Assembly: GCF_004745425.1 (NCBI RefSeq)
Contig: NZ_PGGK01000004.1
Span: 203,434-227,433 of the forward strand
Length of the DNA: 24,000 nt
Source: Methanolobus halotolerans
Lineage (GTDB): Archaea; Halobacteriota; Methanosarcinia; Methanosarcinales; Methanosarcinaceae
Reading direction: 5' to 3'
Within the stretch, counting starts at the first letter, position 1. Each line of letters starts with the position of its first letter. Below are positions 4,694 to 22,389 of the stretch, in pieces. The position numbers were made by a program, and so were the translations under genes. The notes under the pieces are model-generated. The model did no database searches and had not been told where the DNA came from. It worked only from the letters and a program-made list of their open reading frames with translations.

Positions 4694-5209
4694 CTAAAGT
4701 GTCTTCCTCATTTTCTCGATTATTGAAAGACCACGTTCTATCATATCCATGTGATCGGATATTTTCCTGATGTCATCCTCTGAGCGCATGGAACGCGCGC
4801 ATGAGATCATCTTTTCCATCAACAGTGATTCAAGTTCAGTTGCTGAAGGAGAATCCGGCTGGCTGGAAGGATGTCTGGCAGAGTCTGCCTCTGGTACCTG
4901 AGAGGGAGCATCTGTCTTTACCGTATCTTCCATCGCAGCCTGCGACTGTATGTCGTTGAGCTCTTCGGAAAGAGAATCCCCTTCCGCAGATACTGGAGCA
5001 AGCCTGTTACTTGTGCCTGACTCGGGCTGTAATTCCTGCTGGAGCTTGTTGCGCGGGTCAGTCGCGCCCTCACAGACAGGACACATGATCCTACCTTGGT
5101 ATCTGAACATAGGCGATCCACAAACATCGCAATGCTGCGCAAGCATAGTGCCACCGATCTCCAGCATTCTGGAGATCTTTTTTACCATATCATCGTCCGT
5201 ATTTGTCAT
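4694..5209 (-). CDS. Zinc-ribbon protein of the Sjogren/scleroderma autoantigen p27-like (Auto_anti-p27 / UPF0148) family
   Basis: The 171-aa N-terminus KKISRMLEIGGTMLAQHCDVCGSPMF…CPVCEG matches the family's CxxC…CxxC ribbon as I remember it. The middle is acidic, Ser/Pro-rich and low-complexity. The C-terminus is helical. Confidence 0.72.
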   Translation of the reverse strand: MTNTDDDMVKKISRMLEIGGTMLAQHCDVCGSPMFRYQGRIMCPVCEGATDPRNKLQQELQPESGTSNRLAPVSAEGDSLSEELNDIQSQAAMEDTVKTDAPSQVPEADSARHPSSQPDSPSATELESLLMEKMISCARSMRSEDDIRKISDHMDMIERGLSIIEKMRKTL

Positions 5210-5327
5210 TGAATTCCATCCTGGTTACACAAAATATATACCAATGAAAGTCTTTTTATAGAACGTAACTATTTAGGAATAACTGAGGTAACCCTTATTT
5301 TGATTTTAAAATTATCAAGGTGATCAT

Positions 5328-5594
5328 ATGTCAGATTATGGACAAGTCATTGAGGAATGTAAACAGAAATTAGAGTATATAGCGAACGACAATTCGGTTC
5401 CTAGAAATATCAGACGTTCCGCAAATGAAGTTCTGGAAACTTTAAGGAAAAAAGACGAACCGTTATTCTTGAGAACCTCATCAAGCATATCAGTGCTTGA
5501 AGATATAAGCAATGATCCGAACATTCCTGTTCACACCAGAACCCTTATCTGGGACGTGGCCAGTCAGCTTGAAACAATACCAGTTGACGAGTAA
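5328..5594 (+). CDS. UPF0147-family small archaeal protein
   Basis: The 88-aa ORF contains …[19 protein letters not shown]… and …[20 protein letters not shown], which resembles the tandem helical repeat of archaeal UPF0147 proteins. AGGTGAT lies just upstream of the ATG. Confidence 0.78.
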
Positions 5595-12405: not shown

Positions 12406-12432
12406 CCTGTATTCAGGAGTAACGGATACAGG
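12406..12432 (-). terminator. Hairpin downstream of the stressosome-like operon (possible terminator)
   Basis: CCTGTAT-N13-ATACAGG is a perfect 7-bp inverted repeat, 25 nt past the histidine kinase stop. An AT-rich segment follows that probably holds the mtd TATA box (GTAATATATGC on the minus strand, about 12376-12386). Confidence 0.35.
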
Positions 12433-12456
12433 ACAAAGCAGGAAAATTTTATTTAA

Positions 12457-13482
12457 TTAACTTACCTGAGCTTTATCGAGCCTGACCCAGAAAGTGCTGC
12501 CCTCTTCAGGAAAATTGCTGTCCACACCAACACTGCCGTTGTGAAGAGTTACAATCTTATGCACAATTGCAAGACCAAGACCTTTCCCCCTGATACTTCC
12601 CTTTTTTGCTTTATCCAGCCTTGAAAAGCGTTTAAATATAAATTCACAGTCCTCCTCGGGAATGCCACTTCCCCGGTCCTTCACACATGCCTGCCATTGA
12701 TCATCTGAGTCTGAGATGGATATTTCCACATGGCTTCCCTTCGGGCTGTACTTGATCGCATTGGATACAAGATTCGCAAAGACCAGTTTTATCGTAGAGT
12801 GCACCAATACAGGATACCGGCCCTCTGTTTCCAGACATATGGTCATTTCCTTTTTTTCGAATTCCGGTGTGAACTCATCTGCAATATTCCTGAGGATCAC
12901 TCCGAGGTCATCCGCTGAAAAATCCAGTCCGGTCACAGAATCAAGTTTGGCAAGTTCCGCTGCCTGTTCTATAATATTGATCAGGTTAATATTACTTTTT
13001 TCAATATTGGAAAGCAAGGACTTCTTCTTTTCATCGTCCTCCAATTCAAGCAGAATGCCGACAAAGCCGTTGATCAGAGATGCAGGATTTAACAGATCAT
13101 GACGCAGGATATCTGCAAAAAGTTCTTTCAACTGGTTAGAATACTGCAGTTCCTCTGAATAGACCATAAGTTCCTGCTTGTTCTTTTCCAGATCCTCGAT
13201 CCATCGCCTGAAAGCAAGTCCATAAGCCATCATGACTTCTACAAGAGGTGTTGAAAGGAAACCTACTGACTCCATCATTCTCTTGGGAGGAAGTTCAGTG
13301 GTCAATCTTGAAACTGCAGTTTCATGCAACTCGATGATATCTTCTGGAGGAACGTTGAATTTTACCAGTTCATAACCCAGATCTTCAGATCTCATAAGAT
13401 ACTTTTCTTCATGTGTCTCGACATAACCCCTTAAAATCTTATAATACCTGTCTTTGAATTCCGTTTTTGTAATATTCATCAC
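12457..13482 (-). CDS. Soluble sensor histidine kinase with RsbU-N-terminal-like (RsbT-binding) domain + HisKA + HATPase_c
   Basis: N-terminal residues ~8-95 (KDRYYKILRGYVETHEEKYL…VPPEDIIELHETAV…LVEVMMAYGLAF) align well with the B. subtilis RsbU N-domain as remembered (EQRYHQLLSRYI…IPPEEIISIHRKVL…LIEVMIGYGMAY). A coiled coil follows. The H-box is FADILRHDLLNP (His codon 13099-13101). The N-box is ANLVSNAIKY. The G-boxes are DRGSGI and GKGLGLAI. No TM segments. The start is GTG 13482 or ATG 13479, and both overlap the upstream TGA. Confidence 0.9.
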   Translation of the reverse strand: MMNITKTEFKDRYYKILRGYVETHEEKYLMRSEDLGYELVKFNVPPEDIIELHETAVSRLTTELPPKRMMESVGFLSTPLVEVMMAYGLAFRRWIEDLEKNKQELMVYSEELQYSNQLKELFADILRHDLLNPASLINGFVGILLELEDDEKKKSLLSNIEKSNINLINIIEQAAELAKLDSVTGLDFSADDLGVILRNIADEFTPEFEKKEMTICLETEGRYPVLVHSTIKLVFANLVSNAIKYSPKGSHVEISISDSDDQWQACVKDRGSGIPEEDCEFIFKRFSRLDKAKKGSIRGKGLGLAIVHKIVTLHNGSVGVDSNFPEEGSTFWVRLDKAQVS

Positions 13483-14060
13483 CCTGTCATATACACAAGT
13501 ATAGTTGCATCATCTGTCATGCGACCGTGATCCCCGAGTAGTGTTCTGGCCAGTTCCTGTTCATCCTGAAGCAGATACCTATCGTACGCCGAAAGCTTGA
13601 GACTTTCAGGTATACCATCTGTCCACATAAGAAGGAGGTTATCAGGAGATAACTGTGTTCTCTCAATGTGCAAATGCCTGAAACCGCCTCCCACGATACC
13701 CCAGCTTGAAGAAAAGTGAGAAACATCTTCCCCGTAAATCATAGCACGTGTGTTCCCGATACCTCCATACTCAAGGCTGTACTCATTCTGATCCACACGG
13801 ACAATACCCATGGCCACACCTCTTGTTTGTTTGACAGCCCTGTCACATCCCGAAAAGAGAGTATCCAGAGATTCACCGAGATGGGAAGAGACATACCCAA
13901 GAGCAGCTTTTGCAGCTTCCTCTGCATGTATTCCATGACCCAGTCCGTCGATCATACAGAGGGTCAGAAGATCATTTTCAAGCCACCAGTCACACTGGTC
14001 CCCACAATGTACGTCTCCATTGAACGAACGGGATTCCATTGCTATTCGCAAAAATACCAC
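13479..14060 (-). CDS. RsbX-like PP2C/SpoIIE-family serine phosphatase
   Basis: The protein is 186-193 aa. CGD…MIDGLGHG…RG…GIGN…WTDG reproduce the metal-binding motif order of B. subtilis RsbX (CGD, DGLGSG, GNV, TDG), and the size matches. The start is GTG 14060, which overlaps the upstream gene by 19 nt, or ATG 14039, 2 nt after its stop. Confidence 0.85.
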   Translation of the reverse strand: MVFLRIAMESRSFNGDVHCGDQCDWWLENDLLTLCMIDGLGHGIHAEEAAKAALGYVSSHLGESLDTLFSGCDRAVKQTRGVAMGIVRVDQNEYSLEYGGIGNTRAMIYGEDVSHFSSSWGIVGGGFRHLHIERTQLSPDNLLLMWTDGIPESLKLSAYDRYLLQDEQELARTLLGDHGRMTDDATILVYMTG

Positions 14061-14485
14061 AACCTGCTTCTAATACATGTTTTGAAATCGTCAGTTACCA
14101 AAATGTCAAGTTCATCCATCAACCTTTCAACTGCAGGAAGACCTGATCCAAGACCCGGTCCCGTTGAATAACCATCCTGCAAAGCCATATTCACATCCTT
14201 TATCCCCGGACCAGAGTCGATTGAAATAATCTCAATCCCGATGCATCCGTTTTTCCTGATCCCTCTGATAGATATGGTACCACCTGCAGAAGTGTGATAC
14301 ACAAGATTAGAGGCAAGTTCAGATGCTGAAATTGCTGCCTTGAATATGTACAGTTCCGGAAAACCAAGTATCCTTGTGATTGCCCGTACTTTGGTCTGAA
14401 CGTTTGCGACATGAGAGGTCTTTGTTACCTCCACTTTTGCCTCAAGATTCCCTCCAGCAGAACCGGGAGCAGGGATATCAGACAT
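14042..14485 (-). CDS. Second RsbT/RsbW-like GHKL serine kinase (anti-sigma-regulatory-factor family ATP-binding protein)
   Basis: The 147 aa carry an N-box (ELASNLVYH), G1 (DSGPGI), …LQDGYSTGPGLGSGLPAVERLMDE. It is a paralogue of the preceding RsbT-like gene. Its ATG at 14485 overlaps the upstream stop (ATGTCTGA). Confidence 0.85.
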   Translation of the reverse strand: MSDIPAPGSAGGNLEAKVEVTKTSHVANVQTKVRAITRILGFPELYIFKAAISASELASNLVYHTSAGGTISIRGIRKNGCIGIEIISIDSGPGIKDVNMALQDGYSTGPGLGSGLPAVERLMDELDILVTDDFKTCIRSRLWYFCE

Positions 14486-14888
14486 GTGGACGACTCATTT
14501 CCAGATTTATCTTTGTCAATCCGGGCTGCGACTCTATCTGAAAATCATTAACAAGCCTCTTTGCACCGGGGAGGCCTGCACCCAGTCCTCCACCAGTTGT
14601 ATAACCATCTTCCATAGCCTTGTCCACATCAACAATGCCTGGCCCATAATCCTCGATCTCTACTTTAATACATATCTCTGAAGAAGAAGTTCCCGTAACA
14701 ATATGACATACACCTTCTCCTGCATATTTGATCACATTTCTTGTCAGCTCGGAGATCGCAGTGGCCATACGTGTCTGATCAGCAGAGCCAAAGCCTATAT
14801 CAGCCATTTTTTTCCTTGCAGTCTGCCTGGCTATTAGGATGTCATCTTCATTTCGAAGATCTATGCTAATCTCACTTATTTCAATCAA
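14478..14888 (-). CDS. rsbT: RsbT-like stressosome serine kinase (GHKL)
   Basis: The 136 aa read [42 protein letters not shown]…[38 protein letters not shown]. This closely parallels B. subtilis RsbT as remembered (DIVAARQLGRNVAKELGFGTVDQARITTAISELARNIYLYAG…[38 protein letters not shown]). A TTG start overlaps the rsbS stop (TTGATTGA). Confidence 0.9.
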   Translation of the reverse strand: [136 protein letters not shown]

Positions 14889-15246
14889 CCCCTTCGTTGA
14901 ACATTTTTACCAGTTTGTCAAAACCTTTGTCAAGATTCAGTGCGGTATCCACACCGATCAGCTCACGCCCCATTTCAACCAGTGTCAGCGCAACCATTGG
15001 TTGCATGCCACAGAGGACAACCCTTGCACCCATTAGACGTGCCATTCTTGCGGTCTCATTGATGACACGGGCCATGAAAGAGTCGATTATGTCCATTGCC
15101 GTGATGTCTATGACAAGACCTTTAGCACCGCTTTTCTCCAGAGTTGACATGACATCGGACTGGTATTTCAGTGCGTCATCATCGTTCATATCACTCTGTA
15201 TCGAGGTGAGAAGAATATTTTTCAATTTCAGTATTGGAATTTCCAC
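14881..15246 (-). CDS. rsbS: RsbS-like single-STAS-domain stressosome scaffold protein
   Basis: I trimmed the track ORF (to 15324) to GTG 15246, which is preceded by GAGGTGA (15251-15257). That gives 121 aa, the same length as B. subtilis RsbS. IPILKLKNILLTSIQ…GLVIDITAMDIIDSFMARV…MGARVVLCGMQPMVALTLVEMG matches remembered RsbS IPILKLYNCLLVSIQ…GVVIDLTSVDMIDSFIAKV…[22 protein letters not shown]. The phospho-acceptor Ser in IIDSF is conserved (codon 15079-15081). Confidence 0.9.
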   Translation of the reverse strand: MEIPILKLKNILLTSIQSDMNDDDALKYQSDVMSTLEKSGAKGLVIDITAMDIIDSFMARVINETARMARLMGARVVLCGMQPMVALTLVEMGRELIGVDTALNLDKGFDKLVKMFNEGVD

Positions 15247-15260
15247 ATAATCACCTCTGC

Positions 15261-16061
15261 TTACACAAGTTTTCTTCCTACAAGTGTGAAGGCTTTTGAT
15301 ACACCATCTTTTAACGAGCCACATGTGATAATATCACTTAGGTCAACCCCAAGAGTTACAAGAGTCTGGGCAACATTGGGGCTGAAACCGGTTATGATAA
15401 TTTCAGCGCCAAGCATTTTACCCGCACTGACAGTCTTGAGAATATGCTGTGCAACGCTGGTATCGATCATCGGAACACCGGTCACATCAAGTATCGCCAC
15501 GGTGGCTTCGTTCTCAACTATAGATGAAAGGAGATTCTCAATAATCTGCTGGGCACGCATAGTGTCAATCACCCCTACAAGCGGAAGTATTACAATACCT
15601 TCCCAGAGTTTGATAACCGGAGTAGAAAGCTCCATTATAGTTCGGCTGTGTTCCTGAACTTCTTCCTCGATCTTCACCCTCTCGGTAATATCAATGACGT
15701 ACTCGACTCCGCCCACAATATTACCATCCTTATCTCTCAAAGGTGACGCAGTGTATTCGATGGGGAAGGTCTTGCCTCCGGTTGTAATCTCATTTCTCCA
15801 TACATACTTCCTGTCATTTTTCATTGCCTGCTTGACGCGGCAGTTATCTGTTCTGCAATGGGAGGACTGCACAAAGTCATAACACTTCTTACCCTCGACA
15901 TTTTCAAAATCGTCCCCCATCCATTCGCATCCTGTGTTGTTTAAGAACAGTATATTAAAATCCAGATCAACGGCCATCACCATACATGGAAGTTGATTAA
16001 GCACATCCTTTGCAATATCCACATTTTCCACATTATCTGAACTTACATTTTCGTTAACCAT
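15261..16061 (-). CDS. RsbR-like stressosome sensor: N-terminal Cys-rich PAS domain + C-terminal STAS domain
   Basis: 266 aa. Residues ~20-128 look like a PAS fold (…MVMAVDLDFNILFLNNTGCEWMG…GKKCYDF…PIEYTASPLRDKDGNIVGGVEYVIDITERV). Residues ~145-260 are an RsbR-type STAS domain (STPVIKLWEGIVILPLVGVIDTMRAQQI…VAILDVTGVPMIDTSVAQHI…GAEIIITGFSPNVAQTLVTLGVDL). The Thr equivalent to the RsbR phospho-site in V(D)T is present (codon 15459-15461). A GGAGGT SD lies upstream (16065-16074). Confidence 0.9.
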   Translation of the reverse strand: MVNENVSSDNVENVDIAKDVLNQLPCMVMAVDLDFNILFLNNTGCEWMGDDFENVEGKKCYDFVQSSHCRTDNCRVKQAMKNDRKYVWRNEITTGGKTFPIEYTASPLRDKDGNIVGGVEYVIDITERVKIEEEVQEHSRTIMELSTPVIKLWEGIVILPLVGVIDTMRAQQIIENLLSSIVENEATVAILDVTGVPMIDTSVAQHILKTVSAGKMLGAEIIITGFSPNVAQTLVTLGVDLSDIITCGSLKDGVSKAFTLVGRKLV

Positions 16062-16304
16062 CTAATACCTCCTGGTTAAAAACGTGATTAAAAAGCATAA
16101 TACAAGATAATAATATATTATAATATATAATAATTAGCTATATATAAACAGATCACATGCAATCTTTTTTAGCATCAACTCAAAAAAAGGGCTTAGTTTG
16201 AAAGTATTTGTCCGAAAACCTTAAAAGCAATGTGACTTATTTCACATCAATCTCGGCACTTAAATACTGTTTCATGACGGGATTTAAAATCTAGGTTTGA
16301 TCAA
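16062..16304. promoter_or_regulatory. AT-rich divergent intergenic region: probable promoters of the stressosome-like operon (minus) and serB (plus)
   Basis: These 243 nt lie between divergent starts and hold multiple TATA-like elements. There is a 16-bp perfect palindrome ATATATTATAATATAT (16113-16128), TATATAAACA (16141-16150), and an inverted repeat ATGTGA-N6-TCACAT (16230-16247) about 58 nt upstream of serB. Confidence 0.5.
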
Positions 16305-21443: not shown

Positions 21444-21992
21444 TCACCAATACTCTGGTTTATTCAAAGCATCTGCACAAACAACTCTGCCCTTAAATCC
21501 ATCAGTTGTTCCTGTGCTTAGAGAATAGATCATCCATGCACCCGCATGTTCTTCAGGAATTGGATAAGGTGCAGTAAACCCCATACTTGCAGCATCCTGC
21601 TTAAATCCATATTTTGGATAATAGCTTTCAGGTCCGAAAACAAAAACCATTTCAGCACCACTTGCTTTTAATCTATTCAATCCCTCATTAATTAACATTC
21701 CACCAATTCCCTGTCTCTGATGGGTCGGTTTAACTGCCAGAGGTGCAAGAATGTAAACTAATGGAGATGATGTATTTCCATCAATGGCTGCTTTTGTGAA
21801 AAGAATATGCCCTAATGCTTCTTCTTTCTTGAAAGCCAACAAAGATATGACTGGTTCTGCGCTTTTATCTTCCAGAAGCTGAGCTACAAGAACTGCTTCA
21901 TCCTCAGATTCAAAAGCCTCTTTTTCAATTTCCATTACATTGTTAAAATCTGAGTCTTTTGTTTCCCTTATCTGAATATCATCTGTTGACAT
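21444..21992 (-). CDS. GNAT-family N-acetyltransferase (YhbS/COG3153-like)
   Basis: I trimmed the start to ATG 21992 (MSTDDIQIRETKDSDFNNVMEIEKEAF…). The acetyl-CoA motif is V.P..QRQGIGGMLINEGLNRLKASGAE, followed by …YYPKYGF. The track ORF's 25-codon N-terminal extension overlaps the upstream gene. Confidence 0.85.
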   Translation of the reverse strand: MSTDDIQIRETKDSDFNNVMEIEKEAFESEDEAVLVAQLLEDKSAEPVISLLAFKKEEALGHILFTKAAIDGNTSSPLVYILAPLAVKPTHQRQGIGGMLINEGLNRLKASGAEMVFVFGPESYYPKYGFKQDAASMGFTAPYPIPEEHAGAWMIYSLSTGTTDGFKGRVVCADALNKPEYW

Positions 21993-22038
21993 ACCACACC
22001 TTCTTAGTTTAAGCAACGCTAAAAATATCAACAACTTC

Positions 22039-22389
22039 TCATTTTGATTTATGTTTCTGCATCTCACGTTTTGCCATCATGTTGGAGCCAAACGTGTATA
22101 AAAGAATGACGAAACCCAGCCATATAAAGTGCTCTCCTGTTTCAGGCATACCCAGATATTTCAGGGCCAGGCCAATACCAAAGATCACCAGATTGACCAT
22201 ACCTATCTTTTTATTCTTTCTTGCGGTTTCATCATAAAGCTGCTTGTGTACTAGATACTCTTTTTTTTCATCTTTCACGTTTTCACAACCATTGACAGGT
22301 AGGTTATAGAGCCTGTGCTGAAAATCCTTTTGGTAATTTAGAACATCTAACATCCTGGCTTGACAGGCATTTAAATCACCTCTGTCCAC
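22039..22389 (-). CDS. Hypothetical small membrane protein (two predicted TM helices)
   Basis: The 116-aa ORF starts at GTG, or 104 aa from ATG 22353. It has two hydrophobic stretches (IGMVNLVIFGIGLALKYLG; FIWLGFVILLYTFGSNMM) and a K-rich tail. I recognise no family. Confidence 0.5.
   Translation of the reverse strand: MDRGDLNACQARMLDVLNYQKDFQHRLYNLPVNGCENVKDEKKEYLVHKQLYDETARKNKKIGMVNLVIFGIGLALKYLGMPETGEHFIWLGFVILLYTFGSNMMAKREMQKHKSK

Follow-up and report, generated by a model that had tools for sequence, protein, structure and literature searches.

The 24,000-nt window analysed here (Methanolobus halotolerans assembly GCF_004745425.1, contig NZ_PGGK01000004.1, positions 203,434 to 227,433; all coordinates below count from its first nucleotide) carries on its reverse strand, at 12457–16061, six co-directional and translationally coupled open reading frames (ORFs), with no biologically plausible competing long ORFs. 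In the order of the cluster they are R (RsbR-like), S (RsbS), T1 (RsbT), T2 (a second GHKL kinase), X (RsbX-type phosphatase) and HK (histidine kinase), and the flanking genes are serB and mtd. We consider it highly probable from homology and gene order that the cluster is a functional, bacterially derived RsbR-RsbS-RsbT-RsbX stressosome operon, fixed in Methanolobus, with a histidine kinase output replacing RsbU/RsbV/RsbW/SigB. The public records (TGC09836–TGC09841) carry only the names "PAS domain-containing", "ATP-binding" and "histidine kinase".

The junctions between the six genes are tight. The R stop codon TAA (15263–15261) is followed by GAGGTGA (15257–15251) and by the in-frame GTG start of S at 15246, giving a spacer of 14 nt. 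S and T1 overlap by 8 nt (TTGATTGA, 14888–14881), and so do T1 and T2 (ATGTCTGA, 14485–14478). T2 ends with TAG at 14044–14042, leaving a 2-nt gap to the ATG of X at 14039 that is used in the public gene calls, while an alternative GTG at 14060 would give an X of 193 amino acids overlapping T2 by 19 nt. The TGA of X (13481–13479) overlaps the start of HK, which is either ATG 13479 (the public call, 340 amino acids) or GTG 13482. A six-gene unit with these junctions had been described in an earlier reading made from the sequence alone (the sequence-only reading), and it is found at the coordinates given there.

S (14881–15246) encodes an RsbS antagonist of 121 amino acids made up of a single STAS domain (Pfam, 7.5e-11). 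In a phmmer search of the PDB it matches RsbS of B. subtilis (6jhk, 6e-32) and of Listeria (6qcm, 5e-31), and MtS of Moorella (2vy9, 9e-27). An RsbS protein is recognized by its single-domain STAS build and a phospho-acceptor Ser, Ser59 in B. subtilis and Ser56 in L. monocytogenes, and S has both, with Ser56 (15081–15079) aligned to Listeria RsbS Ser56, the position of which is evident from chain 9o4r, an S56A mutant.

T1 (14478–14888, TTG start) is an RsbT orthologue, a GHKL Ser/Thr switch kinase of 136 amino acids with matches to HATPase_c (5.8e-10) and HATPase_c_2. It lies directly after rsbS and its N, G1 and G2 boxes are intact, as in RsbT-type kinases. T1 gave no match at E <= 0.01 in our copy of the PDB, where no RsbT chain is present, and it was therefore compared with RsbT ORFs of 133 amino acids from about 50 Bacillales sigB operons, taken from genomes; these score 100–116 bits to T1 and 74–88 bits to T2. 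An assignment of T1 and T2 to the RsbW/SpoIIAB anti-sigma kinases was rejected: TIGR01925 gives 38.6 bits for T1 and 29.7 bits for T2 against a cutoff of 135, the Bacillales RsbW proteins form a separate outgroup (bootstrap 200/200), and no sigma factor gene accompanies the two kinases.

X (13479–14039) is an RsbX-type PP2C feedback phosphatase of 186 amino acids (193 with the alternative start). The Pfam SpoIIE match is 4.8e-07, or 30.4 bits against a cutoff of 25, and the best structures are MtX of Moorella (3zt9, 4.5e-17) and RsbX of B. subtilis (3w40, 9e-9). The metal motifs GD, DGxGHG, TDG and DD are all present in the alignment, as expected for RsbX.

R (15261–16061) is an RsbR-like co-antagonist of 266 amino acids with Pfam matches to PAS_4 (4e-17), PAS_9 and STAS (2e-14). 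It consists of a PAS sensor domain at about residues 20–130, a linker helix at 126–145 and a STAS domain at about 147–260. For the STAS half, the PDB search gave the RsbR chains from cryo-EM structures of the Vibrio and Listeria stressosomes (7o0i_B, 1.4e-32; 7b0u_A, 7e-32; 6qcm, about 1e-32). RsbR proteins combine a variable N-terminal sensor with a C-terminal STAS domain carrying two Thr residues (171 and 205 in B. subtilis, 175 and 209 in L. monocytogenes), and this is the build of R, where Thr167 and Thr201 (15461–15459) align with Thr175 and Thr209 of Listeria RsbR1 at a constant offset of 8. Of 66 full-length homologues of R, 98% have Thr at position 201, and none has a residue other than Thr or Ser at 167. 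All the features of the RsbR, RsbS, RsbT and RsbX families that a sequence can show are present in the four proteins. The acceptor Ser of S at 15079–15081 and the Thr of R at 15459–15461, both called conserved in the sequence-only reading, align as it had supposed, and the profile and structure-database searches placed S, R, T1, X and HK in the families it had proposed.

The domain families alone would also suit another kind of system. STAS, GHKL and PP2C domains build small partner switches as well, and in NCBIfam there are only sub-threshold matches to the anti-sigma antagonist and SpoIIAB models. The genes might then encode a soluble switch of small size, made of STAS proteins, kinases and a phosphatase as in RsbV-RsbW-RsbU or SpoIIAA-AB-E, that regulates HK directly and never assembles at the megadalton scale. 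We regard this as unlikely, as the matches of S and of the R STAS half to chains of solved stressosome cores reach about 1e-31 to 1e-32 whereas the SpoIIAA/RsbV-type model TIGR02886 reaches only 0.0025, and as the cluster has the stressosome signature of R-S-T order, paired RsbR and RsbS STAS proteins and an RsbX-type phosphatase, with no pair of the RsbV/RsbW type.

The PAS domain of R contains the motif C60-x7-H68-C69-x4-C74 (15840–15884, reverse strand). Cys60, Cys69 and Cys74 are kept in 100%, 98% and 100% of the 66 homologues, which come from archaea and Desulfobacterota-type bacteria. His68 is conserved in 86% of them and is otherwise Cys (6 sequences, including Methanosarcina) or, once, Leu. 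Sets of metal or iron-sulphur (Fe-S) ligands typically allow such an interchange of His and Cys at a fourth position. The Cys3His site suggests a metal, Fe-S or redox/O2 site, and in view of the invariant cysteines and the interchange of His68 with Cys we take a redox, O2 or metal input as a working guess.

The best fold match of the AlphaFold2 model of R (mean predicted local distance difference test score, pLDDT, 85) is full-length YtvA (2mwg, E 9e-18, TM-score 0.62), the LOV-STAS blue-light RsbR paralogue of B. subtilis, which has the same architecture of PAS domain, linker helix and STAS domain. R was therefore considered as a LOV photoreceptor, and this was rejected: the NCBIfam model NF052652 (YtvA_fam) gives 103 bits against a cutoff of 250, and R appears to lack the flavin-binding motif GXNCRFLQ, reading GKKCYDFVQ instead. 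The core of the LOV motif, NCRFLQ, would correspond to KCYDFV in R, and Cys60 appears to stand at the position of the flavin-adduct Cys. Unlike in YtvA, the three invariant Cys and one His of R suggest a metal or redox site and not a flavin photocycle. The UniProt entry for R of M. halotolerans is labelled "Diguanylate cyclase"; Pfam finds no GGDEF domain in R, and the label is probably a propagated mis-annotation. On a 1.85-Mb metagenome contig (L088, 5638–9268) three RsbR paralogues of PAS-(PAS)-STAS type stand in tandem, 50–52% identical to R, and neither an RsbS nor an RsbT gene lies less than 7 kb away from them.

T2 (14042–14485) encodes a second GHKL kinase of 147 amino acids (HATPase_c_2, 8.7e-08) that is 39% identical to T1. 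Invariant in the T2 family are E56 and N60 of the N box, D90xGPG94 of the G1 box and G111xG113xG115 of the G2 box. Among the matches listed there are 18 two-kinase loci, excluding near-identical Methanolobus contigs; the first kinase scores higher to T1 than to T2 in 18 of the 18, and the second higher to T2 than to T1 in 16. In a neighbour-joining tree of 137 columns the T1/RsbT proteins and the T2 proteins fall into separate groups, and RsbW stands cleanly outside both. T2 is also tied to the phosphatase. At 14 loci, 13 of the 80 metagenome loci and one Vicinamibacterales genome, T2 and the PP2C domain form a single ORF of 333–348 amino acids, and six of these fusions were confirmed by Pfam as HATPase_c_2 plus SpoIIE; at no fewer than 13 further loci X directly follows T2 as a separate gene. 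In one uncultured bacterium (L009, 5983–8115) a lactonase gene is directly followed by a three-gene T2-X-RsbU_N-HisKA-HATPase_c unit, and none of R, S and T1 lies next to it. The fusions, as Rosetta-stone evidence, point to T2 working with the phosphatase. By these scores and positions T2 belongs to a bacterial two-kinase sub-family, as a conserved paralogue of RsbT that is linked to the phosphatase. That the gene encodes a GHKL kinase had been seen from the sequence alone and holds, but it is not an incidental extra. We found no description of a second RsbT paralogue in the literature searched, the Pane-Farre 2005 and 2017 comparative surveys lying outside it. Two metagenome loci (L108/L109, 2515–8433) show the order R-S-T-T-[T2-PP2C fusion]-HK-HK, in which a single operon has three kinase domains of the RsbT family.

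HK (12457–13479) encodes the presumed output, a histidine kinase of 340 amino acids with Pfam matches to RsbU_N (3.9e-14; 53 bits, cutoff 25.5), HisKA (2.3e-06; 28 bits) and HATPase_c (3.9e-27; 95 bits). Its N-terminus (residues 8–98) matches the RsbU N-domain in the PDB (2j6z, 1.6e-7; 1w53, 1.8e-6), more weakly than S, R and X match their structures. In the AlphaFold2 model (pLDDT 82) a four-helix RsbU_N domain (5–74) is followed by one uninterrupted helix (76–146) running through His127, by the second helix (150–179) of the dimerization and histidine phosphotransfer domain (DHp), and then by the catalytic and ATP-binding domain (CA); there is no receiver domain. In the alignment (A4) there is no variation at H127, N236/N240, D268xGxG272, F282/F285 and G298xGxG302, the residues of the H, N, G1, F and G2 boxes, and the protein has the sequence features both of an RsbU_N effector and of a class I (HisKA) histidine kinase. 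In RsbU, activation by RsbT works through the linker, which becomes ordered into a coiled coil, and RsbU_N-histidine kinases and RsbU_N-GGDEF proteins have been proposed to share this architecture (PMC12143880); RsbU_N on proteins encoded downstream of RSTX modules has been taken to mark the RsbT target (PMC9237108). The modelled helix from RsbU_N to His127 has the geometry proposed for such RsbT-controlled effectors.

The two halves of HK differ in their relatives. Orthologues in Methanolobus are 60–100% identical, and the next approximately 100 best database matches cover the DHp-CA core only. The first bacterial match is that of Anaeromyxobacter oryzae with 170 bits, and every named match ranked higher comes from Methanosarcinaceae, namely Methanococcoides, Methanosalsum, Methanohalobium, Methanohalophilus, Methanomethylovorans and other Methanolobus kinases, and these proteins have GAF, PAS, HAMP or periplasmic-binding sensors and lack RsbU_N. 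The core (101–340) scores 206–238 bits against Methanosarcinaceae kinases without RsbU_N, where the RsbU_N half finds no match. Against the outputs of bacterial modules (RsbU_N-histidine kinases and other RsbU_N proteins) the core scores 11–80 bits, with no match in two, and the RsbU_N half 13–78 bits (76–78 for Anaerolineae, 70 for L009); against the RsbU_N-histidine kinase of Methanosarcina horonobensis the core has 80 and the RsbU_N half 102 bits. These opposite score patterns indicate that RsbU_N came with the module and that the transmitter was recruited from a host family, and by them HK is a chimera of a module-derived RsbU_N domain and a native Methanosarcinaceae-type DHp-CA core.

The site of the cluster is shared within the genus. 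The serB flank scores 257 bits to TIGR00338 (cutoff 144), and the mtd flank, an F420-dependent methylene-tetrahydromethanopterin dehydrogenase, matches PF01993 at 5.9e-123, so that the placement between mtd and serB given by the sequence-only reading is borne out by both models. The full six-gene cluster is present in at least M. halotolerans, M. vulcani and three metagenome contigs near Methanolobus sp. T82-4/M. zinderi, the archaeal counts being lower bounds, and all of these clusters lie between serB and mtd. A Methanolobus UBA118 contig (L007) has S, T1, T2 and HK, with X partly masked by Ns; the 252 Ns within this X gene (5178–5429) represent database masking or a scaffold gap and not a deletion of the phosphatase. 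Single cluster proteins are also found in M. zinderi, M. mangrovi, M. sediminis and Methanolobus spp. T82-4, WCC4 and ZRKC1, giving at least eight Methanolobus genomes or metagenome-assembled genomes (MAGs) with cluster proteins. Outside the genus, Methanosarcina horonobensis has a five-gene version without T2 (R-S-T-X-RsbU_N-HK) at another site, publicly labelled "RsbR, positive regulator of sigma-B", homologues of R occur in other Methanosarcina, and a Ca. Methanospirareceae MAG has the version R-S-T-RsbU_N-HK-X. Methanolobus T1 is sister to the Methanosarcina T (neighbour-joining bootstrap 150/200). This sister relationship would fit a single entry of the module into Methanosarcinaceae, with T2 later lost and the genes moved to another site, but does not prove it.

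Among the matches listed, the order R-S-T1-T2-X-(RsbU_N output) is found in Anaerolineae, a Deltaproteobacteria MAG, Syntrophobacteraceae, Litorilituus, Colwellia, Marichromatium, Lamprobacter, Ectothiorhodospira, Magnetovibrio, Zoogloea, Comamonadaceae, Peptococcaceae and others. The same six-gene order in several bacterial phyla argues for transfer of the whole operon. For five of the six genes, R being the exception, the closest bacterial scores in the same set are those of Anaerolineales (L004 and L015), the unclassified L009 (for T2, X and HK only) and Deltaproteobacteria (L089). The best bacterial matches listed for R are L089 over the full length (319 bits) and, for the STAS half, L019 of Syntrophobacteraceae with 176 bits against 175 for L015; R of the Deltaproteobacteria MAG has the same PAS-STAS architecture with 52–56% identity. 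Transfer of the whole operon from anaerobic bacteria is the simplest reading of these relationships.

The ratio of nonsynonymous to synonymous substitution rates (dN/dS) of the six genes is 0.09–0.19 against the closest Methanolobus and 0.06–0.24 against M. vulcani, near the 0.08–0.10 of serB, which shows that all six genes are kept by purifying selection. Together with the same serB and mtd site in M. vulcani this agrees with the sequence-only reading, where the cluster was taken for a domesticated system and not a recent insert. The host-like codon usage claimed there holds approximately: pooled synonymous-codon usage of the cluster correlates with that of the other window genes at r = 0.87 and the GC content is 0.42–0.48, but T1 and T2 have a somewhat low GC content at third codon positions (GC3), 0.36–0.38. 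This slightly atypical GC3, the bacterial origin, the missing nearby response regulator and a host without a sigma-factor pathway would all suit a decaying or silent relic of horizontal transfer that has no current function in the archaeon. We find such a relic hardly credible, given six intact ORFs that retain all catalytic and acceptor residues, the low dN/dS values, and a locus that is conserved in M. vulcani and in the contigs near T82-4/M. zinderi, with its proteins spread through the genus. As a separate observation, the synonymous rate (dS) against the closest Methanolobus contig (L002, 8425–12029) is 0.10–0.31 for the module genes, lower than for mtd (0.51) and serB (0.61), and there may have been later recombination of the cluster among Methanolobus lineages.

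For the functional stressosome operon we propose the following mechanism. Through their STAS domains R and S would assemble together as a core of the stressosome type and hold T1 sequestered on it, as in the homologous solved complexes. The PAS domain of R would read the signal, with Cys60, His68, Cys69 and Cys74 suggesting a metal, Fe-S or redox/O2 cue, after which T1 would phosphorylate Ser56 of S and Thr167 and Thr201 of R and leave the core. By analogy to RsbT and RsbU, free T1 should bind the dimeric RsbU_N domain of HK and order the long linker helix into the His127 helix, and thereby switch on autophosphorylation, with the phosphate going to an unlinked response regulator or some other partner. 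X would strip the phosphates from the STAS domains and reset the complex. T2, as an ancient RsbT paralogue, most likely forms one unit with X; it may dock or regulate the phosphatase on the STAS core, or it may be a kinase opposing X and so set the reset time. The operon would have come from anaerobic bacteria, the closest modules among the matches listed being in Anaerolineales and Desulfobacterota-type genomes, and in Methanolobus RsbU_N would have been joined to the Methanosarcinaceae-type DHp-CA core, plugging the imported sensor into host two-component signalling.

Several points weigh against this interpretation. The search for REC domains turned up none among the ORFs of the window, nor any in the sequences flanking the cluster on the homologous contigs. 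Orphan histidine kinases are the rule in Methanosarcinales, and most archaeal histidine kinases are orphans whose wiring is unclear (PMC11784639), so the missing linked response regulator does not exclude a function for HK. In V. vulnificus binding of RsbT to the downstream kinase was not detected, though that kinase lacks RsbU_N (PMC9237108). Both the V. vulnificus result and the orphan state of archaeal kinases would fit with two systems that are merely juxtaposed, HK not being the target of the released kinase and T1 and T2 acting on unlinked substrates, for instance on archaeal regulators by Ser/Thr phosphorylation. We think this very unlikely. HK has a bona fide RsbU_N domain (the 53-bit Pfam match and 2j6z at 1.6e-7), which in B. 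subtilis is the RsbT-binding domain, and the X and HK genes overlap. Moreover, an RsbU_N-bearing or similar histidine kinase output directly follows the phosphatase at 14 of the 16 bacterial two-kinase loci among the matches listed that extend beyond it, the exceptions being L044, where the output lies upstream, and L022 of Vicinamibacterales, where none was identifiable. In archaea the RsbU_N-histidine kinase comes after X in Methanosarcina, and between T and X in Ca. Methanospirareceae.

Further points on the same side concern T2 and the sensor. The deep split between T1 and T2 has a neighbour-joining bootstrap of only 35–40/200; the paralogue assignment is therefore drawn mainly from the reciprocal scores and the conserved gene position, and we claim no date for the duplication. 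The role of T2 with X is deduced from fusions elsewhere, the two being separate genes in this genome, and the sensory ligand of R is a guess from conserved Cys and His residues. A wider proposal is quite possible and is put forward tentatively: the operon would belong to a so far undescribed two-kinase class of stressosomes in which T2 and RsbX form a unit for reset or a second output, and the Methanolobus copy would be a natural instance of signalling rewired between domains of life, in which a bacterial megadalton sensor that probably reads redox or metal through its Cys3His PAS site was grafted to a native archaeal histidine kinase core. If this is true, a strict anaerobe has gained a stressosome-gated two-component pathway, and the linkage of T2 to RsbX, if it holds, concerns many bacterial stressosomes and not only Methanolobus.

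Between R and the divergent serB there is an AT-rich intergenic region (16062–16304) common to both genes, which is the presumed promoter region of the operon. Read from the sequence, it contains a TATA-like element, TTTATATA, at 16148–16141 and GGAGGT at 16071–16066, 4 nt 5' of the R start codon. At the 3' end of the operon, before mtd (12406–12456, reverse strand), there is a T-run at 12446–12443 and a weak 7-bp hairpin at 12432–12406. This hairpin was rejected as a terminator, its fold of -10.1 kcal/mol being non-significant (z = -1.5). Scans of the window with Rfam and for tRNAs gave no matches. Elsewhere in the window, a GNAT acetyltransferase gene (21444–22067, reverse strand) has a GC content of 0.38 and a GC3 of 0.26, with all other window genes at GC3 0.36–0.63, and it may be a more recent foreign gene.

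Earlier papers already report that the four-gene rsbRSTX module is widespread among bacteria of diverse kinds and reaches "even some archaeal species" (PMC9237108, PMC8942246), and they describe RsbU_N-histidine kinases in stressosome operons of some Proteobacteria (PMC9237108, PMC12143880), so the Methanolobus cluster is not a new kind of system. A census of archaeal two-component systems makes no mention of stressosome or RsbT components (PMC5847659), and in the literature searched there was no characterised archaeal stressosome and none for Methanolobus. The sequence-only reading was in this respect right that the system is uncharacterised in archaea, as far as that literature goes, but it overstated the novelty. 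What appear to be new are the T2 paralogue with its link to RsbX, the chimeric host-type core of HK and the Cys3His PAS sensor.

To our knowledge, only a few bacteria have had their stressosomes studied, and the signals that activate these complexes are still mostly unknown. The archaeal copy is compact, with a single RsbR and no paralogues of it in the cluster, a Cys3His sensor, and an output that is measurable as histidine kinase autophosphorylation, and it would be a clean system for studying how a stressosome turns a signal into release of a kinase. It would also show a bacterial signalling machine integrated in a cell without sigma factors, and it would give methanogen biology a candidate redox or stress sensor beside core methanogenesis genes. 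The chimeric HK would illustrate in a concrete way the "exchangeable linker toolkit" that has been proposed for RsbU_N proteins.

In comparison with the stressosomes of B. subtilis and L. monocytogenes, the Methanolobus module has the same RsbR/RsbS STAS pair, the acceptor Ser and Thr residues, the RsbT-type kinase, the RsbX PP2C phosphatase and an RsbU_N receiver. It differs in lacking the RsbU phosphatase, RsbV, RsbW and the sigma factor, with RsbU_N fused to a histidine kinase core, and also in having a PAS sensor where theirs is a non-haem globin, X inside the module, the extra T2 and an archaeal host. The RSTX module of V. vulnificus (Heinz et al. 2022, PMC9237108) is alike in being a minimal rsbRSTX without SigB and with a HisKA/HATPase_c kinase directly downstream, but the sensor of its RsbR is a haem globin and RsbU_N is missing from its kinase. 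Compared to this and other proteobacterial modules, that of Methanolobus has an archaeal-type kinase core and no linked response regulator, and the published descriptions consulted for the V. vulnificus and proteobacterial modules mention no second RsbT paralogue. The MtR-MtS-MtT-MtX-MtG module of Moorella thermoacetica (Quin et al. 2012), to the extent that it is described in PMC12143880, is similar in that RsbU_N precedes the effector, X is closest to MtX and S matches MtS; the output effector according to the same account is a GGDEF diguanylate cyclase and not a histidine kinase.

For the bacterial R-S-T1-T2-X-(RsbU_N output) modules we found no description in the literature searched. They have the identical order and both kinase paralogues, and R of the Deltaproteobacteria MAG shares the PAS-STAS architecture and the Cys motif. 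The outputs of Magnetovibrio, Marichromatium and L009 are RsbU_N-HisKA-HATPase_c proteins as in Methanolobus, but outputs vary among the bacterial modules (GAF-PAS, hybrid histidine kinase-REC, plain histidine kinase) and the core of the Methanolobus kinase is not orthologous to theirs. The archaeal modules of M. horonobensis and Ca. Methanospirareceae share with it a PAS-STAS R, S, a T1-type kinase, an RsbX PP2C phosphatase and an RsbU_N-histidine kinase. They differ from it in the missing T2, in chromosomal site and in gene order, the PAS domain of the Methanospirareceae R has no Cys motif, and their kinase cores are distant from that of Methanolobus, with 80 bits for M. horonobensis and 126 bits for Ca. 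Methanospirareceae.

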